In this document: in pieces, positions 5,639-26,298 of the stretch
Numbering within the stretch: position 1 is the first letter of the stretch
Layout of the letters: each line of letters opens with the position of its first letter
NCBI GenBank assembly: GCA_964355335.1
Contig: CAYHDB010000004.1
Span: forward strand, 1-47,960
Length of the DNA stretch: 47,960 nt
From: an uncultured Candidatus Saccharibacteria bacterium
Lineage (GTDB): Bacteria; Patescibacteriota; Minisyncoccia; Phycocordibacterales; SIBU01
Direction: 5' to 3'
The notes under the pieces: generated by a model
Database searches by the model: none
What the model saw: only the letters and a program-made list of their open reading frames with translations
What the model was told of the DNA's origin: nothing
Made by a program: the position numbers and the translations under genes

Positions 5639-6163
5639 TTAATTGCTAAACAAATTCGTCATATATGTCGAAAGAGTTCTACTCGTGGTCGTCGCACCGT
5701 TCTGCCAAGACACAACGACGGTGACCTTTTTTGTGCCAGTATCTAAGGTGCCACTTGATGCGATATTGTCATTTGAATCTCTGCTTACATTCTCAAAAGT
5801 TGCATATCTTGTATAAAAAGAATCGATTTTCGAAGCAGTGGCGGAAGTCGTCCATCTTGTACCGTCCCAATTAAAATAATATTTTGTTGAGCCGTTTAAT
5901 CCGGAAATATTGGAGGTCCAGCCGTAATCTCGCAAAATGCTTGCCGTCTCTATACCCTCCTCCAGAAGATACGTCGCTTGTATATTGTTCAAGGTATTCA
6001 TACCCACTTTCACAAACATACTGTATGCCGTGAGAAGTCCCGTAACAGCAAGCAAAAGGAGTGCCGAACCAATGACAACTTCGATGATGGAAACACCTGA
6101 AGAAGTTTTTAGCTTTGAGCTTTGAGCTTTTAGTTTTATTGAAATTCCTGATTCTTTATTCAT
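5639..6163 (-). CDS. Prepilin-type protein (PilV-like)
   Basis: SG|VSIIEVVIGSALL class III signal; C-terminal KKVTVVVSW. Confidence 0.85.
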   Translation of the reverse strand: MNKESGISIKLKAQSSKLKTSSGVSIIEVVIGSALLLLAVTGLLTAYSMFVKVGMNTLNNIQATYLLEEGIETASILRDYGWTSNISGLNGSTKYYFNWDGTRWTTSATASKIDSFYTRYATFENVSRDSNDNIASSGTLDTGTKKVTVVVSWQNGATTTSRTLSTYMTNLFSN

Positions 6164-10608: not shown

Positions 10609-13089
10609 TCACTTGGAAATGATTGTTATCTTGCCCGAAGCCCCGTCAACTCTCACCCGCATTCCCGTTTTAAGCACGTGGGTAGCTCTCGGGACATTAA
10701 GTACCGCCGCAAAGCCGATTTCCCGAGCATAGATGGCTCCATGCGCAAGTAATCCTCCCACTTCGGTAACAAGCCCTCCTTTCGCCCCTACTATTGCGAG
10801 TGCCGGTGCCCAAGCTGGATCGGTCTGTTCTGTAACAAGAATTGACCCAGGCTTAAGCATTTTAATGGTCACTGTATCTGCTAAACTCCTGACAATAACC
10901 ACTTCTCCCGTAACCGAGGCGTTCGTAACACCAATACCCTTCAGAACACTCGCGGTGTTAAAAAAAGCATCAGCTGTTCCAATGTGTCGCAACTCTGCCG
11001 CAAACGAAACTGGCGGTACGTAAACGTCCCTATGGAGTCTCCGCATTTCCTCTCTTCCGTCTGCTCTCCGTCGAAGAATACCTGCCTTGGTGGTAAGATG
11101 CCCGACCTCTTCCGGTTTAAGGTAAAAGATTCGACCCTCATCCCAACCAAGCTTGCGTTCGATGACTACAGCAAGTTCCCGAAGGAGTGCATAGCCTCGG
11201 AGATATTCGAATTTTACCTCTTCTCTAAGACCCAAGTATGTCTGAGCCATGGATAGCAGGTCGCTCAAACCCTGCAAGTGCTTCCGCCCCGGTCTAAACA
11301 ACCTAGCAAGAAGCATTACACGCTCGTCTTCTTTCGAAGAAAGGTCGTGTTCGGGTGATTCCGTGATTCCCTCGGAAAGTTGGCGAAGTGTTTCCGGTTG
11401 ATTGGCAAAACGAGGCGTTGAAATTTCCAATTCATGTTGGGCAAGATGCCCGTAGCGTTCACAAACCTCTTCGAGAGTAACAGTTCCCTGTTTCAAATTA
11501 AAGAGGTCTGCCGTGAACTGCAGATTTGGATTTGTCTTCCGCGCCGATCCGCCAGTTAATACATTGAGGAATTGATCCGCCTTTTTTCCGTGATGTTTCT
11601 TTATCATCTTTCGCGCTTGCGCGTAAGAGAAGAAGCCGAGCCGAGCTGCCTTCACGAAGATCCTACAAGCACGGGTTCGAAGCAACTCACAAATCGCCAT
11701 GTACTGCGAAGTGAGTTCCGCAAGTGATCCATTGCCTAGTGAATGTTTAGCTTTTGAGATCGCAGCGGTCCATTCCGGAAGAAACTTGCTTCGATACTCA
11801 TCTTCCGTTGTGGTCGCTGCATTCAAAAGCTTTTGTTCAAAGACTTGGTACGCTTTGTGAAAGCATTTGCCCTTTCGAACTCCGAAGAGATCTGAAAGGA
11901 AGCGCCGTGTTGGGTTCTGGTTGTACAGAACCACCTCTGGATAATTGGCAAGACTCCTGTCTGCTCGAACTCTTGCAAGGTAGTGATTCACCAACTTGCA
12001 ATAATCGAGAAGCGGAATACCTGCTATCCTGTAAGTAAAAGCATCGTGAATTATGCTTGAACGTGGCTGCCCTCCTATGAGGGCGAAAAAACCACAATCC
12101 AACTCATCCCCGATCTCATACCCGAGCTCATTTCGAGCCATACGTATTGCTCCATTCCCATGGGCAAAACAATACGTGAATAATCCAAACCCCATTGTCG
12201 TAGGAAAGGACGTCAGAAGTTCGACAATGTTTTGGTCCGTGAACACGTCCTCAGCGAGTCTGCAACCAAGCGTGACAAGACGTTTTTTCTCCCTGCCAAC
12301 CTCTGCGACGGTTTCTTTGATAGAACGTTGAACTTTCGGAGAGAGCTTCTTGTCATTCAATTGGCCCAGTGTGTCAGAACGGCTTTTCCGACCCTGATTA
12401 ATAAACAACAAGCCGGTAGTGCACTCGAACGCCCATTCAATATCATTCACCCCGAGGTTCTTGTTAAGCAGCTTGGCAGTTTGGACAAGCTCCTTGATCT
12501 GCTTGGGACTCAAGTCAACACCACCTTTTCCCTCAACCCTTTTCACCAGTCCGGTTTTCTTATACACGTACCAGCGCCTCGGCTCTTCCTGCCCGGAAAC
12601 CAGTTTGTCTGCAGTACCGGTCGTGGCCTCAATGACCATGCATTCCTTGTCACCGTTTGCGGGATTATCAGTAAAGATAACCCCTGCGACAGACGCATCA
12701 ACCATCTCCTGCACAAAAAGGGCTAACCGTGGTTCTCGTGCGTGATGGACTTTCCGGTATGACTGCGCTACCGTGCTTTTTACAGCTTGGGCGCATTCAA
12801 TTACTGCGGCACCGAGGTCTTTTCGAGCGACAAACAGCTTGCTTACAAACTGCCCCGCCCACGACAACTCGCCGTCTTCGTCAACTGCGGAACTGCGAAC
12901 AGCAAAACCTACGCGGTTGTCGTCAAGAGAGCTAGTAGAATTCAACAACCCTGCTGGCAGCCTGCCAGTTCGATTGATAAAATCTACCCTTTCTACTTCT
13001 AACGAAACAAAGGGTTTAACGTTTGCCAACTTTCTGATGCGAAACAACATTACTGCTTTTCGCCCGTTATGTTTAACTGAGAGTTTCAT
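10609..13089 (-). CDS. PEP-utiliser/PPDK-type kinase: N-terminal ATP-grasp, central substrate domain, C-terminal phosphohistidine swivel (rifampin phosphotransferase / L-glutamine kinase architecture)
   Basis: AVRSSAVDEDG..SWAGQF, VQEMV...AGVIFT, DIEWA and C-terminal TDPAW...GGLLAHGAIYAREIG..AV. Confidence 0.85.
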   Translation of the reverse strand: MKLSVKHNGRKAVMLFRIRKLANVKPFVSLEVERVDFINRTGRLPAGLLNSTSSLDDNRVGFAVRSSAVDEDGELSWAGQFVSKLFVARKDLGAAVIECAQAVKSTVAQSYRKVHHAREPRLALFVQEMVDASVAGVIFTDNPANGDKECMVIEATTGTADKLVSGQEEPRRWYVYKKTGLVKRVEGKGGVDLSPKQIKELVQTAKLLNKNLGVNDIEWAFECTTGLLFINQGRKSRSDTLGQLNDKKLSPKVQRSIKETVAEVGREKKRLVTLGCRLAEDVFTDQNIVELLTSFPTTMGFGLFTYCFAHGNGAIRMARNELGYEIGDELDCGFFALIGGQPRSSIIHDAFTYRIAGIPLLDYCKLVNHYLARVRADRSLANYPEVVLYNQNPTRRFLSDLFGVRKGKCFHKAYQVFEQKLLNAATTTEDEYRSKFLPEWTAAISKAKHSLGNGSLAELTSQYMAICELLRTRACRIFVKAARLGFFSYAQARKMIKKHHGKKADQFLNVLTGGSARKTNPNLQFTADLFNLKQGTVTLEEVCERYGHLAQHELEISTPRFANQPETLRQLSEGITESPEHDLSSKEDERVMLLARLFRPGRKHLQGLSDLLSMAQTYLGLREEVKFEYLRGYALLRELAVVIERKLGWDEGRIFYLKPEEVGHLTTKAGILRRRADGREEMRRLHRDVYVPPVSFAAELRHIGTADAFFNTASVLKGIGVTNASVTGEVVIVRSLADTVTIKMLKPGSILVTEQTDPAWAPALAIVGAKGGLVTEVGGLLAHGAIYAREIGFAAVLNVPRATHVLKTGMRVRVDGASGKITIISK

Positions 13090-13166: not shown

Positions 13167-13796
13167 TCAACTAAGATCGACGCAGTTACCCAGGTAATCA
13201 ATAAGGTCACAAGAGTACCTAGTCCGTCGTACTTGTGCGTCAACCCTACCAAATAAACAAGCAATCACCCAAGAAGCACTCGTTCCGGTACATTTGCAAA
13301 TATACTTTATGAGTGATCTGTGTGCGTCAACATCAGAAGCTTCCCGTGCAACCGGGCAATCAGTGGGTTTCTCCCTATATCTTTGCTCCAGGTAACCAAG
13401 CGTGCAGAGCATTTTTGATTTGCATTCAGGAAAAAGCCTTTGTAGGGTTTCAGAAACGCTTTCATCCATTGCTAAGATAATCGAGGATTCTTCGATATCT
13501 GTACTACTCACTTCCTGTGCCAACCGATCTGTGGGCATAACAACTCCACACTCACTAAGAACAGGTTTAATTGTTAACCACAAAGCCGGAAAGTCTTTCA
13601 CCAGACTTTTCCCGGCACACCCAGTTAATCCCCGAGAGATACAGGTTGCCGACCTTGGCACCCTGTACAACTGCAAAGGTTCGTATGAAGCAGTGCGTTT
13701 TATTCTTAGTGTTTCATTGAGGCATGTTTCTGCAATAACTGAACGGTAAACGTTGTCTGCACAAACGATGAGAATTTGATTTTTCATAACAATCAT
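13167..13796 (-). CDS. Low-molecular-weight protein Tyr/Arg phosphatase or ArsC-like protein
   Basis: N-terminal ILIVCADNVYRSVIAE (CX5R P-loop), SRGL and IILAMD. Confidence 0.75.
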   Translation of the reverse strand: MIVMKNQILIVCADNVYRSVIAETCLNETLRIKRTASYEPLQLYRVPRSATCISRGLTGCAGKSLVKDFPALWLTIKPVLSECGVVMPTDRLAQEVSSTDIEESSIILAMDESVSETLQRLFPECKSKMLCTLGYLEQRYREKPTDCPVAREASDVDAHRSLIKYICKCTGTSASWVIACLFGRVDAQVRRTRYSCDLIDYLGNCVDLS

Positions 13797-13858
13797 TTTG
13801 TCAAAGAACTACTTTTCTGGCTGTCTATGACGGCGAATTGGTCGCCGGCATATTCCAA

Positions 13859-13900
13859 ACAAAAAAGACACCTTGGCGAAATCCAAGGTGTCTTTTTTGT
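13859..13900 (-). terminator. Attenuator terminator hairpin
   Basis: Perfect 18-bp inverted repeat ACAAAAAAGACACCTTGG-cgaaat-CCAAGGTGTCTTTTTTGT including a U-run. Confidence 0.9.
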
Positions 13901-14284: not shown

Positions 14285-14314
14285 TTGTACTGTTGTAATG
14301 CTACACAAGTACAA
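14285..14314. promoter_or_regulatory. Tandem TrpR-type operator overlapping the trpR promoter
   Basis: TTGTACT-N16-AGTACAA with an internal GTAAT-N8-AGTAC; compare the E. coli GTACT-N8-AGTAC core with 8-bp tandem spacing. Confidence 0.7.
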
Positions 14315-14369: not shown

Positions 14370-14400
14370 AAATAAAAGACGCTCTGTGATAGAGCGTCTT
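14370..14400 (-). terminator. Intrinsic terminator after the zinc-ribbon ORFs
   Basis: AAGACGCTCT-gtgat-AGAGCGTCTT with an adjacent minus-strand U-tract. Confidence 0.8.
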
Positions 14401-14417: not shown

Positions 14418-14588
14418 TTAATACGTCACAGTGCGAACAATCTCATGTCTCATCCCGAAGTCTTCCGCCTTGTAAGGTGGCATAAGCAACCAATTACACT
14501 TAGGACAAAGGGCGGGTGATGTAACTTTCGGAAACACAATCCTGCTACACTGCCAGCACCAGTAGCATCTCCGTCTTGGATTTTTCAT
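14418..14588 (-). CDS. Small zinc-ribbon-like protein (56 aa, MKNPRRRCYWCWQC...LCPKC)
   Basis: Two CxxC pairs; GAGGGA SD upstream of ATG 14588; followed by a terminator. Confidence 0.6.
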   Translation of the reverse strand: MKNPRRRCYWCWQCSRIVFPKVTSPALCPKCNWLLMPPYKAEDFGMRHEIVRTVTY

Positions 14589-14607
14589 CACATATCCCTC
14601 TTTGTGT

Positions 14608-14811
14608 TCACGCACTCCAGGCCGAACGGCGAGGTTTGGTGCGTGTCGGTGCAGTGCCGAAACCAGCGGGACGGCTTGGCTCAGACAGAACCGCACTGAT
14701 AGGTAACTCTTCAAGAACAGTATTGCACTTTGCGCAGTGGATGTTCCGGCCGATTTGTTTTGTTGTGACATCGGCCAAACAGCGAACGCAGTATTTAGTT
14801 GGTGTATTCAT
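14608..14811 (-). CDS. Small zinc-ribbon-like protein (67 aa, YCVRC...HCAKC)
   Basis: Two CxxC pairs; first ORF after the T-box terminator. Confidence 0.6.
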   Translation of the reverse strand: MNTPTKYCVRCLADVTTKQIGRNIHCAKCNTVLEELPISAVLSEPSRPAGFGTAPTRTKPRRSAWSA

Positions 14812-14854
14812 TTTAAGGAACTATTTTTTGAGAACGATTTTTGTTTTTGAAACG

Positions 14855-15175
14855 AAAAATCCCATCCCCAATGTCCCGACATAATGTCGAGACGCTAAGG
14901 ACGAGATTTGTTTCCCGTGGTGCCACCTTGCTTGTCCGCCTAAGTTTTGTTCTCACAAAAATTTTGGCGTGCTTCTCATCAGCTCATGCTCCTTGCGGAA
15001 GATACTGATTATCTCTGTTACGGGAGAACCCGGGCCTGCACACGAGCTATACCTTTCGGTCGCTCAAGCACAGACCATCCTGTCATCTGTTTTCACAAAC
15101 GACTTATCTAGCCCCAACCCCAGCCACCTTTCGGCAACCAGGAACTAGACATGGATGTTGTAACTGTCAACCTGA
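14855..15175 (-). ncRNA. T-box riboswitch (transcriptional) with an atypical 5' domain
   Basis: T-box AAGG-UGGCACC-ACG (14929-14916) pairs with CGUCCUU (14903-14897); a competing long terminator with U-run spans 14909-14855; stem III-like hairpin upstream; F-box-like CCCGUAAC (15024-15017). Confidence 0.8.
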
Positions 15176-15212: not shown

Positions 15213-15836
15213 TCAGATTTTAAACCTCCTTGAAAAATCCCCAACGTGATATTTTCTAAAATCAAAGACTATATTTACCTCTTTATTAAGCGTCTTTATA
15301 TAAGCAAAAAATTGACTGGCATCCCAGACACTTAAGTCCAGGCCTTTCACTACCTCATCCAACTTCTTCTGAGCAACAGCAACCTCATCTGAATGACTCA
15401 TTATTTCCGCCTCAAAATAATAGCTGTGGTTCGGAACCTCTACCAAGGCGAGCTCAACACCCTTATATTCATAGACCCATGAGTTTCTTACACAAAGCAT
15501 CCCCTTTTCCAAACCGATACTACCGAAAATCCTTACTAAGTCATCGAAGGAATTATTCGGAGTACATACAGATATTTCCTCCCGACTTTCCTTGCTACCC
15601 CAGGAACCAAGCTTAACTATTATTTCAGGAACCCCGTTCGTAACCCGAAGGCGAATATCTTTATTTCTTGCATTGAGCTTCTGACCTTTTATAAAGGTAG
15701 AATAATCAATCAGAACTCTTTCCTTTTTCAATTTGAATTTGCCATTCGTCGTCAGAAACTTTTTTACACGCAAAAACTCATTTCGGGCTAAAGTCCCTCG
15801 CACTTCCACTTCTATTGTTTTCGCTTTCTTAGCCAT
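15213..15836 (-). CDS. CYTH (class IV adenylate cyclase / triphosphate tunnel) domain protein
   Basis: IEVEVR (ExExK-like), IRLR, SREEI and YYFEAE motifs. Confidence 0.8.
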   Translation of the reverse strand: MAKKAKTIEVEVRGTLARNEFLRVKKFLTTNGKFKLKKERVLIDYSTFIKGQKLNARNKDIRLRVTNGVPEIIVKLGSWGSKESREEISVCTPNNSFDDLVRIFGSIGLEKGMLCVRNSWVYEYKGVELALVEVPNHSYYFEAEIMSHSDEVAVAQKKLDEVVKGLDLSVWDASQFFAYIKTLNKEVNIVFDFRKYHVGDFSRRFKI

Positions 15837-18640: not shown

Positions 18641-19417
18641 CTAAATCATTCCTTTAAGTCGGGATGCTTTAATCAAATCAATCCTCTCCCCTTCCTTTAT
18701 CGAACTCCCAATGATTGCTCCGTTCGCGACAGAGAATTGTTCTCGAATGTTTCCTTCATTCACGCCAGCACCGACAAAAATCGGAAATTGCGGAAATGCT
18801 TTCCGTACCTCCCTAATTTTCTCTATAGGTGTCTCAACTCCCGTCGCCTGACCTGTAATGACAAGTCCGTCTGAACCACTGTTTATCACAAGCTCAGCCG
18901 ATACCGCAAGTGGCCTTGGGGTCAACATTGTCTTGTACTTGACCTGTATGTCGGTAAGCAAAAGAAGCTCCGGGTAGATAGCATTTTTGTGGGAAAAGAT
19001 TTCTTCGGGCACGGGATTTATTTCACCCCATTTTGAACTGACGTGGTCCACGAACACATCGAGTCTCGTGAATTTCGCCCCAACAGCCTTCGCGATGGCA
19101 AAAGAAGTTTTCCAATCATTGAGCATCATCTGCACACCGATTGGGATTTTTGCAACTCGGCAAACCTCATTTGCGACAACAGAAAAACTCGCGATTTGCG
19201 CTTCGTTCGCAAACTCGGTATGTGGCTTGTCGTTGTCATTCTCAATCAATGCACCGTCAAACCCGGCTTTCTCCAAAGCCGAAAGATCCGCCAAAGCCCC
19301 CTCAATCATCTTCCCCATTCCAGAAAATCCTTCAATGGAAAGCAACGGTGGAAGGTGAATCATTCCGATAAGGATTTGATTTTCTTTGCCGAATACTTCA
19401 TTAATGCTTGGTTTCAT
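18641..19417 (-). CDS. BtpA/SgcQ family TIM-barrel protein
   Basis: IGMIHLPPL, IENDNDKP, DIQVKY, DGLVITGQATG, VGAGV and GAIIGSSIK. Confidence 0.9.
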   Translation of the reverse strand: MKPSINEVFGKENQILIGMIHLPPLLSIEGFSGMGKMIEGALADLSALEKAGFDGALIENDNDKPHTEFANEAQIASFSVVANEVCRVAKIPIGVQMMLNDWKTSFAIAKAVGAKFTRLDVFVDHVSSKWGEINPVPEEIFSHKNAIYPELLLLTDIQVKYKTMLTPRPLAVSAELVINSGSDGLVITGQATGVETPIEKIREVRKAFPQFPIFVGAGVNEGNIREQFSVANGAIIGSSIKEGERIDLIKASRLKGMI

Positions 19418-19591
19418 TCTTTTCTCCTCATATGGGTACTGTATTGTTCTTAAGATTCTAATTAGAAGTCGATTTATTACACGAAAGACTTCCTTATACC
19501 AAACATACAGTACAAAATATGTTGGCCACTGTCAAAACTTCAGTATCTTAAAATTACTGTGCGGATATTTAAAATAATATGATAGTAAAAT

Positions 19592-20659
19592 CTACAAGCC
19601 AACCCCTAATCCAGGCTTCGTAGGCACCTCAACTGTATACCCGTTCCACAACAATCTTGAGGCTTTTTTAGGCAAAAATCTACTTGGCAAAGTCAGATCG
19701 TAACTTACAAAGTCGCCCAGGCAGGATGCGTGTAAGTTATATGCTGTACCAACTTCTGACTGAATCATGTCACCAAGCATATACTTGAGTCCATTTTCTT
19801 GGCAATAAGCAATCATTCGCTTAGCCTCAAATAATCCCCCACATTTGCTTAACTTAATGTTAACCATATCGATTGCATGTTTTTCATTTAAAAGTTTCAG
19901 ATGCCAAAGGGTATGACAACTTTCATCCGCCATGATTGGAATATTCGTCTTAAGCCGTAGCGAAGCAAGTCCATCATAGTCCTCGGCGTGCAAAGGTTGC
20001 TCCAACCATTCAATCCTGACTGGATTTAAAGCCTTCAAAAAAACGAGCGCAGACATAGGTGAATTCCATGCTTGATTGGCATCAAGCACAATAGAAATAT
20101 CAGGAAACGACTTGTTAATCGCTTTTAATATACTTACCTCAACCAGTGTATCTCCACCGACTTTAAACTTAAATATTTTAACACCCTGCTTCTGCGCTTT
20201 TTTGATAACCTCCTCAGGACCATTGTGCATTTCCTCAAAAGAAAAAGTTTTCTGCAGGAGAACAGACACCTTATTCTTACCTCCAAGTAATTCAAATATA
20301 GGTTTCCCTTCGGCTTGCCCTAAAATATCAAGCATTGCCGATTCAATCGCAGATTTAATACCTGTATTTCCGGCAAGATATGAATTGATGTTCTCCATCA
20401 CGGTATTCACATCATCCAGATTAGAAATACTCGCCCCCGAAACAATGGGCTCAACAAGTTTTATTACAGCCAACGCACCTTCTTGAGTTTCGCCGGTGAC
20501 ATCCCATGCCAATGCCGCCTCTCCTAAACCGACCAAACCTGAATCAGATGTGATTCTCACAAGCACATATTTCAGAGTGTTCAATGTCAGTGTGTGATAT
20601 GAAAAAGGCTCCCTCAACTTGAGGTCAAACTTTTCAGCTTCTATCAACTTGATTGTCAT
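19592..20659 (-). CDS. Enolase superfamily, MLE subgroup (dipeptide epimerase / N-succinylamino acid racemase-like)
   Basis: GLGEA, KFKVG (KxK), DANQ, EQP, ADES, NIKLSKCGG and KPGLG. Confidence 0.88.
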   Translation of the reverse strand: MTIKLIEAEKFDLKLREPFSYHTLTLNTLKYVLVRITSDSGLVGLGEAALAWDVTGETQEGALAVIKLVEPIVSGASISNLDDVNTVMENINSYLAGNTGIKSAIESAMLDILGQAEGKPIFELLGGKNKVSVLLQKTFSFEEMHNGPEEVIKKAQKQGVKIFKFKVGGDTLVEVSILKAINKSFPDISIVLDANQAWNSPMSALVFLKALNPVRIEWLEQPLHAEDYDGLASLRLKTNIPIMADESCHTLWHLKLLNEKHAIDMVNIKLSKCGGLFEAKRMIAYCQENGLKYMLGDMIQSEVGTAYNLHASCLGDFVSYDLTLPSRFLPKKASRLLWNGYTVEVPTKPGLGVGL

Positions 20660-20683
20660 GTATGAAAAATAGCACGAGTATAT

Positions 20684-20717
20684 AAAAAAGAAAAGACGAT
20701 GACCTAGTCATCGTCTT
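20684..20717 (-). terminator. Intrinsic terminator after the ATP-grasp gene
   Basis: AAGACGATGAC-cta-GTCATCGTCTT perfect stem with a minus-strand U-tract. Confidence 0.85.
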
Positions 20718-20732
20718 GAATAACAATCGAAT

Positions 20733-21974
20733 TCAAACCTCAATTTCTCGCATTACCCTACGTTTCGCCTTTTCAAATCTTGCTTCTGCGGAAGCAGGTG
20801 ATACCCAGGAAATACCCGTGATATCGCAATAGCCGTGAGCAATCACACCTGGATTGGAGACGACCGCAAAACCTGAAAAGTGAGGGACCAGCAAATCACC
20901 GAGAAGGTTTTGAATTTCTAAAAAACTGTAAGCTTCGACACGGTCAGGAAGACGCAGGTGCTCATGCCTGAAAAAACCGCTGTCGGAGTTCGCGTGCGCC
21001 CGAGAAAGTCTGCGGACCATATCATGAACATAGAGGATTGCCCCTTTTCTTGGATTAAAGTCAATCCAGTAAGGGACACCGTCATCGTCCACAACAATAT
21101 CACAACAGAAGAAACCGATCGCACCTTCAGCAATCAAGGCGGGCCAAAATCTGCTCTCCGCCTCATTCATGATACATCGGCGAGTCTCTTTCGGTAAACT
21201 TTGGGCCGGCCAAACCGCTCCAGCATATCCGAAATTACGGGAAAGTTGCTCAAAAATACCAGTGAAGCACGCTTTTCCCTCTTCGGTTATCTGCCAATGA
21301 AGAGAAACCTCTGTCGAATGGGGTATGACTTCCTCAATCATAAACTCCGCACCAAAGGCCAATCCTTGTCCAGTCAAATTACGCAGCTGCTCCTCGTTGG
21401 CAATAAGCTTCATACCACCGCAAGCAATTCCACCAGTCCCATCCTCCGCCTTCAACAACAAGGTCTTGCCCACTTGAAGCATGGGAAGGCCGTGCCGAAG
21501 CAACTCTTCCCCGTTTCGGCACGCAAACCAAGAAGGTGTCCGCAAACCATTTCGGTCAAAAAACCTCTTGAAGTTCGGCTTGCGGGAAAGCGGAATAGAA
21601 ACATCGAAATTGCAGTACGGAGCTATTCCAAGAGCCTCTGACACCTGTCGTTCACTTTCCTCAATACAGAAGAACTCGAGACGGGATGGCTCTCCGTTTA
21701 CCCGCGACCGAATTTGCCCCTGAAGAAACTGGTTTCGAAGTACAAGTTGTGACAGGGTACATGTTGGGTCAAATGGACCAGCCACCAGAAACTCCGGGAG
21801 GTCAAATCCTAGGCCTTCCCAATAACGAAGAAAGTCCCGATTGATAGGGTCAGTAGTGACCACAACATCTCCCGTGCCCGCCTGACAGATACCACCACGC
21901 TGATCATACGATTGCTCCAAAGCGACACCTTTGAAATGACGGTTGCTCTGAGTGTCTAATATTACACGTCTCAT
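20733..21974 (-). CDS. ATP-grasp peptide/amide ligase with a pre-ATP-grasp domain (PGM1-like)
   Basis: GDVVVT..P...DFLRY N-domain, LLLKAEDGTGG, MIEEVI, GFFCCDIVV and WIDFNPR. Confidence 0.75.
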   Translation of the reverse strand: MRRVILDTQSNRHFKGVALEQSYDQRGGICQAGTGDVVVTTDPINRDFLRYWEGLGFDLPEFLVAGPFDPTCTLSQLVLRNQFLQGQIRSRVNGEPSRLEFFCIEESERQVSEALGIAPYCNFDVSIPLSRKPNFKRFFDRNGLRTPSWFACRNGEELLRHGLPMLQVGKTLLLKAEDGTGGIACGGMKLIANEEQLRNLTGQGLAFGAEFMIEEVIPHSTEVSLHWQITEEGKACFTGIFEQLSRNFGYAGAVWPAQSLPKETRRCIMNEAESRFWPALIAEGAIGFFCCDIVVDDDGVPYWIDFNPRKGAILYVHDMVRRLSRAHANSDSGFFRHEHLRLPDRVEAYSFLEIQNLLGDLLVPHFSGFAVVSNPGVIAHGYCDITGISWVSPASAEARFEKAKRRVMREIEV

Positions 21975-22015
21975 GATAGGTTCCTTTTGTTTTCAAATAG
22001 TTATTACCTCTAATT

Positions 22016-22053
22016 TCTAAATTTAGACTAACTGGCAACAACACCCTTGTCAA
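22016..22053 (-). promoter_or_regulatory. Promoter with palindrome TCTAAATTTAGA (shared-motif copy 3)
   Basis: TTGACA (22053-22048) lies 20 nt from the palindrome (22016-22027), the same spacing as copies 1 and 2. Confidence 0.5.
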
Positions 22054-22097
22054 GGGTCACAAAAAATACAGCACTGCTTAGATATAAATTTGAATAT

Positions 22098-22124
22098 AAA
22101 AAAGCGGCCTAAGTTAAGCCGCTT
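22098..22124 (-). terminator. Intrinsic terminator after the PLP enzyme
   Basis: AAGCGGC...GCCGCTT stem with a minus-strand U-tract. Confidence 0.7.
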
Positions 22125-22130
22125 CGTGTG

Positions 22131-23384
22131 TTATAGATGATGCTCCAAGACCTGTTCAGCAATGATGGTGCACAATTCTTCAAGGGTTGTTTTCTTTTCA
22201 ATCAACAACACTCTCCCAAGTTGTGGTGCTCCGTGTTTCTCGATGAGATCGGGACGATTTCGTCTTACCGAATCAAGCAATGTCTCGGAAATATCCGGAG
22301 CCACGCGAACAATCCCATGCTGATCTTTCGCGCCATTGCCTGTAAATGACAGCAACAGCACGTCTCTGGAATCAAATCGACTCTTCCACTTGAGAGCCGC
22401 GGCCAGGGACATAATGCCTGTCGGTTCGGGAATCACCCCCTTATTCACCAACTCATCTTCATTGGCAAGTACACGATACGCCTCACCCAGATCATTGTTG
22501 ATGAGACCCCCAAGAGGAAACCCTTCAGTCAACTTCAGGCCGTGCATCAACTGAGGCATGCTGTAGCTTTCTATGGCAATTGACCCTTCAGCGGCATCGA
22601 CCTCACTCTCTGAAGTTCGGAATTCCGTATATTTTTGCAGGGGAACGCTCTGATAGAACGCATCCTCTGTTGGAAATGCGCCCTTCATTCCAACAGGGAC
22701 AATTTTGGTTGGAACCGCTTTTTTTTGCCATGAAAATCCTAAAGCAATCCCAGCCAAGTAACTACCGTTGCCGACACCCGAAAGAACGTGAGTGGGTATT
22801 TCAGGAAGCGATAGGATGTCGTCAACAATCACGCTAAACCCAGGAAGAAGATCCTCGTTGTCGACATTGGCGTTACAAATGCCATCCAACCGACACAGGT
22901 CAGCTTTTGTAACGAGATTGTAAACATCTTCAAAGATTGCATCCTTCATTCCCACCACTGTCACGCTTGGAAACGCCGACAGGAGAGTTATCTTCGAGGA
23001 GGAGGCTGGAGTAAAAACAATTGCATTCGCTCCAATCTCCTGCACTCGCCGACACAAGGAATAAGCATGATTGCCGGACGATATAACCGAAAAAGTCCGC
23101 TTCCCCAAAGCATTCCCCATGTCAACGGCACGCTCCACCGAATAATCCTTCATACTGCCGGAAGGATTGGCTCCTTCATCGCGTATGAATACCCGACGGA
23201 CTCCAATGGCTCTGGCAATTTTCGGAACTTCGTATGTCGGAACACGAAACGGGCGTGGACGCACATCCGTTTTAGGTGGCCACAATATACCGTAGCCGAC
23301 AGCATCTGCGTGCACGCGTTTGTGCTCTGCGATGCAATCCCGGGCAACCATTTGGCCACATAGCAAACACTGAAACATACTCAT
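22131..23384 (-). CDS. Fold-type II PLP enzyme (threonine synthase-like) with an N-terminal Cys/His zinc finger; probable start at ATG 23384
   Basis: DEGANPSGSMKD (PLP lysine), SSGNHA, GVGNGS, EPTG and TGNGAKD; AAGGAGG SD before 23384. Confidence 0.8.
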   Translation of the reverse strand: MSMFQCLLCGQMVARDCIAEHKRVHADAVGYGILWPPKTDVRPRPFRVPTYEVPKIARAIGVRRVFIRDEGANPSGSMKDYSVERAVDMGNALGKRTFSVISSGNHAYSLCRRVQEIGANAIVFTPASSSKITLLSAFPSVTVVGMKDAIFEDVYNLVTKADLCRLDGICNANVDNEDLLPGFSVIVDDILSLPEIPTHVLSGVGNGSYLAGIALGFSWQKKAVPTKIVPVGMKGAFPTEDAFYQSVPLQKYTEFRTSESEVDAAEGSIAIESYSMPQLMHGLKLTEGFPLGGLINNDLGEAYRVLANEDELVNKGVIPEPTGIMSLAAALKWKSRFDSRDVLLLSFTGNGAKDQHGIVRVAPDISETLLDSVRRNRPDLIEKHGAPQLGRVLLIEKKTTLEELCTIIAEQVLEHHL

Positions 23385-23513
23385 TCTGGAACCCTCCTTT
23401 ATGTGGGTTGATTGTGAATTGTTAAAGACCGCTGTGGATAAGCCACCTGCATCACTGAGAGAAAAATTAGTCACTTTTACCCCCCTTTCAATATAGAGAT
23501 TATTTTCTAACAA

Positions 23514-23558
23514 TTTCTGAAGTTCAGATTAGACCATATCAAAACCACTGTCAACAAA
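23514..23558 (-). promoter_or_regulatory. Promoter with palindrome TCTGAAGTTCAGA (shared-motif copy 1)
   Basis: TTGACA...TGGTCTAAT followed by the palindrome at 23516-23528; 38/45 identical to 24420-24464. Confidence 0.7.
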
Positions 23559-23613
23559 TTTTAAATATCGCAAAAAAGAGCGCTGTGATTTGGCACATAC
23601 GCTCTACTCGAAT

Positions 23614-24399
23614 CTACTTTTGATGGCGACAGAAAAAGAGCCCTTCGTTGTTTATCCCGACCCCGAGATAGCCCTGTTCTAGCAAACCGGATATCTGGGA
23701 ATGAGTTTCCAGACACACAGGTTGAGGTTCATCGGGTTTATCAAACCCTACGGGGACAAACACACAGTTGGGAGGTAAGGGATTCTTGGGAGGAAAGACA
23801 AGGTTACCGGCGAGTTTCTTCCTGAGGCGAAGCCCCAAATCCTTATTAATATCCGAACCGTAGAAATTTGGCATGCACTCATAAATCTCATAGCCCATAC
23901 CCAATCGCAGTCCCAGGCTGGCACCATTTGAAACACGAATAGCCATAAACAACTCGGTCACACCCTCCGCCCTGGCAAGGTTCTCCTGGTGGTAGGCAAT
24001 ATGCCTGCCAAACCCTTCACCTGTATATTCAGGCAATAAACCTGTGCTGTAGCAATAACCTGCTGGATAGGAAAAATGAAAAGACATCTCATCAATGTGA
24101 TGAAAAAGGATTTGGGAATGACCGATAAGCTCGCTACTCGCCTTCACTCGCATTAATATCAAGGATCCAAATGCCACAATCTTTCTCAACTCATCGATGG
24201 ATATTTCCTGTTCACCTTCAAACACCTTGTCGTCAACAAGCTTAACCTCCTTAAGGACCGACTCATCTGACGTTGAAAGCTCAAAGAAAACTTCATGACC
24301 TCTCTTACCCCTGGCCTCGCCCAACCTTTTACCGATCATTTGACTCACAGTGCCCAGTTTTCCAAAATTCAGATTAGACATACTGTCTCCTTCTATCAA
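23614..24399 (-). CDS. GNAT family acyltransferase
   Basis: TGLLPEYTGEGFGR acyl-CoA motif A, N.AS..L...GY and PNFYG. Confidence 0.8.
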   Translation of the reverse strand: MIEGDSMSNLNFGKLGTVSQMIGKRLGEARGKRGHEVFFELSTSDESVLKEVKLVDDKVFEGEQEISIDELRKIVAFGSLILMRVKASSELIGHSQILFHHIDEMSFHFSYPAGYCYSTGLLPEYTGEGFGRHIAYHQENLARAEGVTELFMAIRVSNGASLGLRLGMGYEIYECMPNFYGSDINKDLGLRLRKKLAGNLVFPPKNPLPPNCVFVPVGFDKPDEPQPVCLETHSQISGLLEQGYLGVGINNEGLFFCRHQK

Positions 24400-24419
24400 A
24401 AAGGTTTTACCTTCACTAT

Positions 24420-24464
24420 TTTCTGAATCTCAGATTAAGCCATATCAAAACCGTAGTCAACAAA
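24420..24464 (-). promoter_or_regulatory. Promoter with imperfect palindrome TCTGAATCTCAGA (shared-motif copy 2)
   Basis: TTGACT...TGGCTTAAT; 38/45 identical to 23514-23558. Confidence 0.7.
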
Positions 24465-24537
24465 CCTGCCAATTCCAACATTTAAAAAAACTCCGAAAAT
24501 ATTTTCGGGGTTTTGTAAAAAACCTGTAGACAAAACG

Positions 24538-25440
24538 TTATTCCAACTTGGCAAAATAAAACCACTCGTCACCAATCTTGGGATTTTGCTTGGGCATTAC
24601 GACGTATCCGTCATAGGGTGCGGACACAACTGTCCCTCCTTCCCTCCTCCCGATCGCCTGGCCACTAGAAACGGGTTCGAAATTTTTCCATTTCTTCAAC
24701 AGGACATCTCCCACCGCATCTCTGTAGTAAATCTGATCAAGTCGGATCACTTTTTGCGCAGGTGCCTTCTTGGTTTTACCACCAATAACACCGAAGTGGC
24801 GTAAGACATTGATGGCCGAACTGTAAGCCGCCTTAAAAGCGGAGACGGAATTATGCTGACCACATTCAATCGTAGCAGACACCTTCCCCTTTTCGTGCGC
24901 GTAATGACCCGTATCATACGAAGTCTTTTGAGAGTCCGATTTTCCAATTTTTTCGTACAACTCAATCCACCCGGCAAGCACATTCGACATACCCGTAGCC
25001 GTCACCAACTGTCGATTGGCCTCCGACTCGTAATCAAGGAAAACAAATGGGGCACTTCTAGCGCTGGTAGAGTGAATGTCCACAAGCATATCGCACTGAT
25101 CTACAGCCGAGGCAAGTTCGTTTGCCAATTTTGCCTCGTCTGTTTTGGGGTTAGGATGATAAGTGAAAATCCTGTTTAGATTTTCTTCGCAATACCTGAC
25201 CTTTTCTGAAAAAGCCTTCGGGTTGCAGACCGGAACGATAGTGACAGACCCCTTCAGAACCTTAAGTTTACCTGTTGAAAATTGGTCAACAAGCTTCTTA
25301 AGCGCCTTAGTCCCACACGGTTCATCACCGTGTATAGCGCCAAAAAAGAGAATTCTTGGCCCCTCCCTATCCGTGCCGAAGGTGTACTTATCAACGATAA
25401 GTTTGGTATTTCCTGAATTTACATTACTTTTCGGTTTCAT
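24538..25440 (-). CDS. Succinylglutamate desuccinylase/aspartoacylase (AstE/AspA, M14-like) family
   Basis: GAIHGDEPCG, NP.A, NLNRIF, VDIHS and TIECGQH. Confidence 0.88.
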   Translation of the reverse strand: MKPKSNVNSGNTKLIVDKYTFGTDREGPRILFFGAIHGDEPCGTKALKKLVDQFSTGKLKVLKGSVTIVPVCNPKAFSEKVRYCEENLNRIFTYHPNPKTDEAKLANELASAVDQCDMLVDIHSTSARSAPFVFLDYESEANRQLVTATGMSNVLAGWIELYEKIGKSDSQKTSYDTGHYAHEKGKVSATIECGQHNSVSAFKAAYSSAINVLRHFGVIGGKTKKAPAQKVIRLDQIYYRDAVGDVLLKKWKNFEPVSSGQAIGRREGGTVVSAPYDGYVVMPKQNPKIGDEWFYFAKLE

Positions 25441-25599
25441 AAGTTATCGTGTTTGAAGGTTAGGATTTTCGACTTTCATGCATACTGTAAAACTACAACG
25501 ATTTCCACCTAAAAGATAGCACTTATTGGATATAATATGCAAATAAAAAACCGCCTCGACAACTTGTCGGGGACGGATTTACACTTGATCCAAGATTGG

Positions 25600-26298
25600 C
25601 TAATTCAGACCCTCTGGATCGCCTTGGAGCAATACCCCGCCGAGAGGCACATGGGTTATGGTATTTATTTCATCGCATGTCCCACTCAAGACGAAACGTT
25701 CGCATTCGGCAAGAGGAATTTTGTATAGAACAACCCGCTGATCTGAGGGTCCCGCCAGACACATCCCCAAAACGTTGAGATAGGGAAAGTGTCCCACGAC
25801 ACCAACTCTAAGAAGAAGCTTATTGAGAACGGGATCGCCATCTCTCCGTAGCAAAACGGTTTTAACTTCAACAACGAACTTCTCCGCGACTACTTCGATG
25901 CGCCGATCAATGGCGCATCGTGCTGGTTTATCTTTTCCCCATTTTACCCAGTCATATCCGTTGCGTTTCCTTGCCTCGAGCAGAATTTTCGCATCACTAC
26001 TCTCAGCAGGATCGGCGCTCTTAGGATTTGGGTCGTAAAGTTCCGGTATTTCAACCAGCGAAGTGTTTGGGTTTGAGAGTGCAAGAGCCAGACGGTGTGT
26101 TCGGATTGCCGGTGAGTAAAATACAACATCAAACTCAGTACCCTCCTTCTTCAGCGCCAAACGAAGCATCTTGATTTGTTCCTTTCCTTCGTCGTTTGGC
26201 AGTCGAAATAAATCGTGAATGTTCGTCACTTCATCCGTCATCATGTCCCGGATAAGTTGGAATTCGATTCTCTTTTTGCCTGTTATGTTCACAATCAA
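25600..26298 (-). CDS. Degenerate histidine-phosphatase-fold protein
   Basis: FYSPAIRT..LA, IPEL and VVGH motifs are present, but RHG appears as RDM. Confidence 0.5.
   Translation of the reverse strand: MIVNITGKKRIEFQLIRDMMTDEVTNIHDLFRLPNDEGKEQIKMLRLALKKEGTEFDVVFYSPAIRTHRLALALSNPNTSLVEIPELYDPNPKSADPAESSDAKILLEARKRNGYDWVKWGKDKPARCAIDRRIEVVAEKFVVEVKTVLLRRDGDPVLNKLLLRVGVVGHFPYLNVLGMCLAGPSDQRVVLYKIPLAECERFVLSGTCDEINTITHVPLGGVLLQGDPEGLN

Follow-up and report, generated by a model that had tools for sequence, protein, structure and literature searches.

The closest described relative of the gene studied here is rifampin phosphotransferase (RPH; RPH-Lm, PDB 5FBS and 5HV1), in which an ATP-grasp domain is followed by a substrate-binding region and a C-terminal swivel domain with a catalytic histidine in a T/SxxGGxxxH motif. 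The RPH-type small-molecule dikinases are a group that the available part of PMC12167813 credits to Stogios et al., and the T-x-x-G-G-x-x-x-H swivel motif is described in the same part of that paper. The gene that we analyzed lies in a 47,960-nucleotide stretch (the window) of contig CAYHDB010000004.1 from an uncultured Candidatus Saccharibacteria bacterium, and it encodes a kinase with the same domain order and swivel motif, for which the same reaction (ATP to AMP, Pi, and a phosphorylated product) is predicted by homology. Its N-terminal ATP-grasp region is about 50 residues shorter than that of RPH, and the two proteins share 17% identity in the fold alignment. Unlike RPH, the kinase is always paired with a phosphatase and controlled by tryptophan sensors; to our knowledge, neither is known for RPH. 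The unit is wired to tryptophan shortage; in relatives of the window, it lies directly behind a T-box leader with the specifier UGG. We hold with moderate confidence that it is a phosphorylate-then-dephosphorylate module acting on tryptophan or a close indole/aromatic compound, which is switched on when Trp-tRNA runs short. A full-text literature search found no paper on a tryptophan-linked dikinase module of Patescibacteria or on T-boxes of the Candidate Phyla Radiation.

Small aromatic compounds are also the substrates of the two-component phenolic dikinases HpeHI, CreHI, and phenylphosphate synthase PpsAB, which belong to the same enzyme family. The cresol and hydroxyphenylethanone pathways remove the phosphate after an intervening step, a protect-transform-deprotect scheme. 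In the available text of PMC12167813, dikinases of the RPH family have phenolic small molecules as substrates and show scavenging kinetics, in the case of HpeHI with a sub-micromolar Km. The window kinase is fused, whereas those enzymes are split in two proteins; they stand in catabolic operons of free-living aromatic degraders, whereas the present family has no conserved carboxylase or oxidase partner and is controlled by tRNA-Trp and tryptophan. The Campylobacter L-glutamine kinase Cj1418, to which an earlier sequence-only reading of the window had likened the kinase, reportedly has the same domain order and uses dikinase chemistry to make an N-P product. The accessible part of PMC11800397 gives Cj1418 of Campylobacter jejuni a role in phosphoramidate synthesis. 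The context here is tryptophan and not the synthesis of capsule phosphoramidate, and no equivalents of Cj1415-1417 were suggested by the Pfam names in general neighbourhood scans, in which no search was aimed at them.

The control of the unit has its own precedents. TrpR and trpL attenuation in E. coli and the tRNA-Trp T-box in B. subtilis are the same three sensing devices as those found here. A T-box followed by zinc-ribbon open reading frames (ORFs), as in the window, or by an EamA transporter, as in relatives, resembles rtpA-ycbK of B. subtilis, whose ycbK encodes an EamA protein. There, according to the part of PMC10327191 at hand, the tRNA-Trp T-box drives the zinc-binding anti-TRAP protein. 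Unlike in the Trp regulons of E. coli and B. subtilis, control here falls on a dikinase and phosphatases and not on genes of tryptophan biosynthesis, and this in genomes without TrpB.

The kinase family and its phosphatase partners

The kinase ORF is intact. The Pfam scan assigned residues 56-184 to PPDK_N (E = 1.4e-25) and residues 746-819 to the PEP-utilizers mobile domain (E = 2.6e-18), with no match to the PEP-utilizers_C barrel; this barrel (PF02896) was found nowhere in the genome assembly of the window (968 kb, 56 contigs, 92.6% complete), where the PF00391 domain of the kinase is the sole one. The claimed order of ATP-grasp, central region, and His-swivel without a C-terminal barrel is thereby borne out. 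The central motifs that had been quoted for it (DQNIVEL, ARNELGY, GGQP, KLVNHYL, YGHL, and EISTPRF) are all present in the translation and lie in conserved columns of a 24-member family alignment. K11, R65, and His783 are invariant in 24/24 of the aligned sequences, and the swivel stretch TEVGGLLAH, which contains His783, fits the T/SxxGGxxxH form of RPH-type dikinases.

NCBIfam returned 24 matches to the kinase, every one far below its cut-off. The PRK06241-type model, RedH, rph, and PigC scored highest. The matches included the PRK06241-type "PEP synthase" model (189 bits, cut-off 972), RedH (156.3 bits, cut-off 1350), PigC (136.9 bits, cut-off 1300), TIGR01418 for PpsA (125.5 bits, cut-off 739.75), and the rifamycin pair NF041857 and NF000283, comprising the rph model (151.9 bits, cut-off 999) and a second rifamycin phosphotransferase model (105.1 bits, cut-off 1700). 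In the PDB search, the sole full-length solved relative by sequence was the Listeria rifampin phosphotransferase (E = 1.3e-29). The structure-model comparison that the sequence-only reading had proposed was run for RPH, and the AlphaFold model of the kinase (pLDDT 87.9) had RPH 5hv1 as its top fold match (E = 2.6e-30). RPH, which had been named as sharing the domain order, is the only full-length match by both sequence and fold. For the central region, the nearest ESM-Atlas clusters carry PF27448 (Rph_4th). Judged by these matches, the kinase belongs to the RPH-type small-molecule dikinases and stands apart from RPH, PigC/RedH, and PpsA, and it represents a distinct, rare family of Patescibacteria within that group.

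A word-indexed search gave about 65 cluster representatives with 40-80% identity over at least 92% of the kinase length, and the named relatives come from Taylor-, Wildermuth-, Magasanik-, and Pacebacteria or are labelled "Patescibacteria group". The locus set for comparison was collected by profile-guided scans and consisted of 25 loci from species genomes (L002, L005-L028) and 32 from metagenomes (L051-L082); the window included, these 58 loci formed 46 groups at 95% DNA identity. The family was present in 2 of 150 other, evenly drawn Patescibacteria genomes (E <= 1e-60). The next relatives beyond the family, from Aromatoleum and Azoarcus, are 28-30% identical and adjoin genes for U32 peptidase, aminotransferase, FAA-hydrolase, and ABC transporters. 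No phosphatase gene was seen beside them, and this context is uninformative on substrate. We also observed that the kinase is split into two ORFs in L022 (6001-8465; 552 + 245 aa), L052, L076, and L077, which may be frameshifts, sequencing errors, or decaying copies, and that L065 holds the C-terminal piece of the kinase only.

The kinase of the window had been described as bracketed by a CX5R LMW phosphatase and an RHG phosphatase, and both assignments held. The product of the upstream gene matched LMWPc (PF01451) with an E of 4.7e-7 and 30.6 bits (cut-off 23.2), and it has the P-loop CADNVYRS (CX5R-S) at its N-terminus, while five LMW-PTP relatives have a C-x-G-N-[IV]-[HY]-R-S loop. The D-P loop with the general-acid Asp is visible in the LMW-PTPs of L005, L006, and L020, and its placement is unclear in the window protein. 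The downstream product matched His_Phos_1 (PF00300) weakly (E = 0.0029, 17.7 bits, below the cut-off of 21.7), and its relatives score up to 47 bits against the Pfam model. Within this histidine-phosphatase family, R12, H13, E105, and H166 are invariant in 30/30 and R75 is nearly so. The AlphaFold model (pLDDT 94.7) matches phosphoglycerate-mutase and histidine-phosphatase folds. When the PDB was searched with the histidine-phosphatase sequence alone, no match was significant, whereas the profile search gave matches; the best profile and fold matches were phosphoserine phosphatase 4ij5 (E = 2e-6), CobC, PhoE, and a riboflavin-pathway phosphatase.

Because L011, L019, and L081 end at the kinase, they were left out of the pairing count, which left 43 of the 46 groups with an intact flank. 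All 43 have a phosphatase gene at most 2.1 kb from the kinase, and in 38 this gene directly follows the kinase in the same orientation. The histidine phosphatase is the only partner in 32 groups, the LMW-PTP is the only partner in seven (L005, L006, L008, L020, L022, L054, and L071), and both occur in four (the window, L055, L066, and L078). The bracketing is far from chance, since it recurs in every assessable related locus, and the pairing of kinase and phosphatase is obligate. As two unrelated phosphatase folds occupy one slot, the needed function would be the removal of phosphate as such. The idea of a "make-and-break" module of kinase and phosphatase, advanced from the window alone, is strengthened by this regular pairing and by the interchange of two phosphatase families. 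The LMW-PTP gene of the window opens (13782-13796) with five codons (MIVMK) that also open the kinase gene of the 80%-identical L002 locus (5983-5997), and the bases just before the start are shared as well. This suggests that the LMW-PTP gene was inserted at the start of the kinase and that the shared MIVMK is an insertion scar.

Within the genome of the window, the closest relative of the partner histidine-phosphatase family is a domain embedded in an isoleucyl-tRNA synthetase (IleRS; ORF C1 62508-66080, L133). It was the second-best match of the hidden Markov model (HMM) of the partner family (E = 5.3e-8). The hhalign comparison of the two gave a probability of 96%, an E of 4e-9, and 26% identity over 179 columns, and the alignment includes the C-terminal R-x-x-x-x-x-G-F stretch.

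Control of the operon by tryptophan sensors

Tryptophan control could be assessed in 40 groups with enough upstream sequence, and a tryptophan sensor stands in front of the operon in 37 of them. In 25 of the 40, the sequence upstream of the operon contains a T-box core motif with a terminator behind it. The leader of L012 (5648-5882), directly before the kinase, scored 99.1 against Rfam RF00230 (gathering score 93), and the other leaders were recognised by core motif plus terminator. The specifier is UGG in 25/25 T-box groups; it is the only triplet common to all, and the bases preceding it are variable. Nine leaders are canonical, with GAA, 0-2 variable bases, and UGG, and sixteen have a short Stem I with GGG(G/A)UUGGG. 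A control T-box leader in L020, which stands before another gene, has UCG at the specifier position. In the UGGN bulge of the 28 leaders listed, N is always a pyrimidine, with C and U found 14 times each. The tRNA-Trp genes beside the operon in L012 and L002 have G73, which agrees with this pattern. The Leu, Val, and Met tRNAs have A73, so the bulge pattern argues against these tRNAs as the ones sensed.

Another 12 groups have no T-box directly in front; they carry a TrpR-like gene, a short Trp-codon ORF with a terminator behind it, or both. No sensor was seen before the operon in the L058-60 group and in L066, and in L065 trpR lies directly downstream instead. Leader peptides with WW or WxW were found in 8 of 16 loci without a T-box versus 2 of 23 T-box loci, and in both of the latter the peptide has a TTG start. 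The leaders of L006 and L014 have a single Trp, and L010 has a W-S-W tail on its TrpR ORF. A TrpR homolog adjoins the kinase in 10 non-redundant loci. GTAC-centred palindromes precede trpR in L010, L011, L013, L015, L025, and L057, and in L015 and L025 the palindrome TGTACTGGTACA lies between the divergent trpR and kinase genes. The specificity of the control for tryptophan rests on the UGG T-boxes and the Trp-codon leaders.

The window itself carries all three kinds of sensor, namely a T-box, a TrpR-like repressor, and a Trp-codon leader with terminator (Table 1). On the minus strand, the order is T-box, zinc-ribbon ORFs, hairpin, inverted repeat, trpR, leader peptide, hairpin, LMW-PTP, kinase, and histidine phosphatase. 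In a 501-nt search against RF00230, the T-box scored 28.8 bits (E = 1.3e-4) and did not reach the gathering score (93), because its Stem I is short. The TrpR-like protein matched PF01371 with an E of 7.2e-22 and 77.7 bits (cut-off 27); it scored 63.9 bits against TIGR01321 TrpR, slightly below 67.25, and 25.7 bits against the YerC/YecD model (cut-off 42.2). The inverted repeat TTGTAC(N18)GTACAA occurs once in the whole genome of the window. The hairpin between the leader peptide and the LMW-PTP gene folds with a minimum free energy of -47.9 kcal/mol (z = -4.78), and 0/200 shuffles were as stable. In this layout, the T-box directly controls the zinc-ribbon ORFs only, and the kinase operon stands behind trpR and the attenuator-like leader. 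The zinc-ribbon ORFs align with the second ribbon of the Zn-ribbon proteins beside a second tryptophanyl-tRNA synthetase (TrpRS2) in L002, L008, and L022, and two-ribbon relatives adjoin TrpRS2 in L002, L008, L022, and L051. By analogy, they could be an anti-repressor for the adjacent TrpR-like protein.

Table 1 Coordinates of the kinase operon and its leader region in the window, with examples of kinase-adjacent TrpRS genes in other loci
Feature	Position	Strand	Description
T-box leader, short Stem I	14851..15155	(-)	Specifier-like site GGGGUUGGGG (UGG + purine); core AAGGUGGCACCACGG
Zinc-ribbon ORFs	14418..14811	(-)	67 aa (14608..14811) and 57 aa (14418..14591), directly behind the T-box
Terminator-like hairpin	14376..14400	(-)	Behind the zinc-ribbon ORFs
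Putative TrpR operator	14285..14314		Inverted repeat TTGTAC(N18)GTACAA, directly upstream of trpR
TrpR-like repressor, 92 aa	14001..14279	(-)	PF01371
Leader peptide ORF, 28 codons	13910..13996	(-)	MNQLLVKIKNAVWRWSMSNHGEIHLFCR; two Trp codons (W-R-W)
Terminator-type hairpin	13861..13898	(-)	16-bp stem into a U tract, between leader peptide and LMW-PTP gene
LMW-PTP-type (CX5R-S) phosphatase, 209 aa	13167..13796	(-)	LMWPc match; 77 nt upstream of the kinase
RPH-type small-molecule dikinase, 826 aa	10609..13089	(-)	ATP-grasp, central substrate-binding region, and His-swivel (predicted catalytic His783), without pyruvate barrel
Histidine-phosphatase (RHG) partner, 217 aa	9883..10536	(-)	Assigned by family residues and fold; 72 nt downstream of the kinase
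Kinase-adjacent TrpRS, L002	3041-4048		
Kinase-adjacent TrpRS, L012	1564-2604		
Kinase-adjacent TrpRS, L017	2429-3496		
Kinase-adjacent TrpRS, L020	10906-11928		

Some further elements of the leader region and the genome were recorded. In 17 of 39 loci (the window + 16), a motif of the form GTTCTTT(G/A)A precedes the start codon and follows the terminator (window ~13809-13817, minus strand); it has 16 occurrences in the whole genome and may be a promoter box, a leader element, or chance. A 207-aa ORF directly upstream of the T-box (15213-15836, minus strand) has a weak CYTH/class IV adenylate cyclase match (TIGR00318, E = 7.6e-6, below cut-off). A second T-box of the genome (contig C33, L131 3633-3823, minus strand) was considered as a link to tryptophan salvage and rejected, as its loop GAC-A fits Asp; it has a short Stem I, 46.1 bits, an E of 7.4e-8, and the bulge UGGC, and stands before an aminotransferase gene. 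A third T-box-like core was seen on contig C37 of the same genome, before an ORF resembling threonyl-tRNA synthetase.

Neighbouring genes and tryptophan auxotrophy

Genes for tryptophanyl-tRNA synthetase (TrpRS) accompany the kinase in 14 of the 46 groups. All of the six tested copies pass the TIGR00233 cut-off, and an HMM derived from these six identified the remaining copies. The TrpRS beside the kinase is an extra, lower-scoring, and more divergent paralog in 4 of 5 genomes. Among the seven tRNA genes in the 25 genome loci, three are tRNA-Trp, and tRNA-Trp(CCA) lies beside the operon in L002, L012, and L026.

Several other gene types recur. Fusions of chorismate mutase and methyltransferase occur in 7 groups (L002, L008, L017, L020, L022, L051, and L067), group II decarboxylases dependent on pyridoxal phosphate (PLP) in 8 loci, one of them within the T-box operon of L069, AstE/AspA-type deacylases in 7 loci, and EamA transporters in 7 loci, with the one in L062 placed between T-box and kinase. 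Genes of tryptophan synthesis and breakdown are scattered: TrpB and TrpA are found in L019 and TrpB2 between T-box and kinase in L069, tryptophan dioxygenase (TDO) in L024 and in L066, where it overlaps the TrpRS2 stop codon downstream of the kinase, an indoleamine-dioxygenase-like (IDO-like) gene in L020, an aromatic amino-acid hydroxylase in L057, and prephenate dehydratase in L055. As for the fusion itself (~395 aa; L002 4167-5354), its chorismate-mutase domain is of type II and its methyltransferase domain of class I, and it occurs in genomes not expected to hold the shikimate pathway.

TrpB was absent from all of the five other kinase-bearing genomes tested. In the window's own genome, tblastn did not find TrpB, TrpA, TDO, IDO-like, chorismate-mutase-methyltransferase, decarboxylase, or second TrpRS genes; it gave one TrpRS on another contig and an AstE-like match. 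Thus, the genome of the window carries a minimal module. We also considered that the kinase might generally feed TrpB, for example with phosphoserine for TrpB2. This was rejected as a general role, since TrpB or TrpB2 is in the loci of 2 groups only and TrpB is missing from the five genomes just mentioned.

Elsewhere in the window, a same-strand run at 18641-26298 (minus strand) encodes BtpA, an MR/MLE enolase-superfamily protein, an ATP-grasp protein with a pre-ATP-grasp domain, a 460-aa PALP enzyme, two ORFs without named function, and an AstE/AspA-type deacylase. It may be a small cluster for modifying amino acids or dipeptides and is surrounded by ArgE-like, NAGS-like, ArgG, ArgRS, and M20 genes. 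Apart from the window, L020 (1-1517, minus strand), from a Kaiserbacteria metagenome-assembled genome, holds a 16S rRNA gene with a group I intron (RF00028, 70.5 bits).

Proposed function and rival explanations

In regulatory terms, the module holds the position of a trp operon, and its Patescibacteria hosts are Trp auxotrophs. By homology, its ATP-grasp domain would transfer the ATP beta-phosphate to His783 of the swivel domain, releasing AMP and Pi, and the swivel domain would carry the phosphate to a small molecule bound in the central domain. The phosphate would then be removed again by one or two dedicated phosphatases. From the context, the substrate is predicted to be tryptophan or a closely related indole/aromatic compound, and the module would serve a Trp-auxotrophic cell when charged tRNA-Trp is low. 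This could work in two ways: a scarce source of tryptophan might be trapped and later released, or the pair might frame a protect-transform-deprotect route resembling the dikinase pathways for phenol, cresol, and hydroxyphenylethanone.

Several points weigh against this proposal. The Trp-type substrate is a prediction from regulation and neighbourhood, and Trp binding is likewise presumed. If kinase and phosphatase share one compound, they make a futile cycle unless there is a step between them, and in many loci the T-box unit consists of the kinase and phosphatase genes only. Tryptophan has no hydroxyl, and the known substrates of the family seen in the available part of PMC12167813 carry OH. 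Some neighbours would consume tryptophan, such as TDO in L066 and the group II PLP decarboxylases in 8 loci. In the window, the T-box falls below the Rfam gathering score, and two terminator-like hairpins lie between it and the kinase. Finally, the rarity of the family makes it an accessory trait and not the general route of these bacteria to tryptophan.

Chief among the rivals is a defence role, directed at an antimetabolite of tryptophan or an inhibitor of TrpRS, in which the kinase would inactivate the compound, inhibition of TrpRS would fire the switches, the extra TrpRS would be a resistant backup, and EamA would be the exporter. It fits RPH as the closest solved relative, the patchy accessory distribution (2/150 genomes), and the divergent TrpRS beside the kinase in 14/46 groups, with true paralogs in 4/5 genomes. 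Resistant aminoacyl-tRNA synthetase paralogs beside resistance or biosynthesis genes are a known pattern, and the neighbouring EamA, TDO-like, methyltransferase, and decarboxylase genes could modify or expel tryptophan analogues. However, a phosphatase partner present in 43/43 groups would undo the inactivation and is left unexplained by defence, the genome of the window has no second TrpRS, there is no candidate compound, and the score against the rph model is far below its cut-off. We therefore regard defence as possible but unlikely.

Phosphorylation at the protein level, active in tryptophan starvation, is a second alternative. The swivel histidine might pass its phosphate to a protein or to the catalytic His/Cys of the partner, or the phosphatases might reset the phospho-His of the kinase. 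A shared operon of kinase and phosphatase is typical of protein phosphorylation pairs, and the operon here has that form. Both phosphatase families form covalent phospho-enzymes and include protein phosphatases, and the two are unrelated and interchangeable; Sts and PGAM5 were matched by the histidine phosphatase in the fold and profile comparisons, and the swivel domain is shared with Enzyme I of the phosphotransferase system. But the central domain shares homology with the region of RPH that binds small molecules, the best matches of the histidine phosphatase are small-molecule enzymes (4ij5, CobC, PhoE, and the riboflavin-pathway phosphatase), and no conserved candidate target protein stands beside the pair, which together make this explanation improbable.

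An amino-acid kinase like Cj1418, making an N-P bond on glutamine or another amino acid with no link to tryptophan and with the phosphatases as phosphoramidases, is highly improbable. All of the regulatory signals are specific for tryptophan, and the regulatory and neighbourhood evidence points to tryptophan and not to glutamine. No match to a glutamine kinase was found in NCBIfam or the PDB. In its favour stand the domain order as reported for the Cj1418 family and the relation of the IleRS-embedded domain to the partner family, which hints at a link between phosphatase and amino-acid charging. Both phosphatase families contain N-P hydrolases, which would also suit this explanation. The arginine phosphatases presumably have Thr at the LMW-PTP loop position that is Ile or Val here, and this loop leans slightly against an N-P product. 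The last alternatives, which the sequence-only reading had itself named as outcomes that would refute it, are an ordinary phosphoenolpyruvate (PEP) synthase, as the automatic annotation of relatives ("pyruvate, water dikinase" or "PEP-utilizing enzyme") and the top NCBIfam names would have it, or a rifamycin-specific phosphotransferase; with no PEP/pyruvate barrel in protein or genome, scores far short of the TIGR01418 and rph cut-offs, and Trp-specific control and an obligate phosphatase partner that neither would lead one to expect, their chance is negligible.

A bolder version of the phosphorylate-then-dephosphorylate module would make a phosphorylated tryptophan or indole precursor the working intermediate. 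The dikinase would capture a scarce source as a phosphoramidate or an aryl/enol phosphate, and the phosphatases would release it for the charging of tRNA-Trp, with the module standing in the place of the trp operon and regulated by TrpR, attenuation, and T-box. We consider this version speculative and rather doubtful. If it is true, the histidine-phosphatase domain in IleRS would suggest a wider use of phospho-amino acids in the phylum.

T-boxes, Trp-codon attenuators, and TrpR are highly specific signposts that normally mark genes for the synthesis, import, or charging of tryptophan. Here, all three mark an enzyme pair without a known place in tryptophan metabolism, in hosts that are unable to make tryptophan and live in dependence on other cells. 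Should the pair supply or protect the charging of tryptophan, this would be a new chemistry of amino-acid acquisition or defence, and it would be the first physiological role of an RPH-type dikinase beyond antibiotic inactivation, pigment synthesis, and aromatic catabolism.

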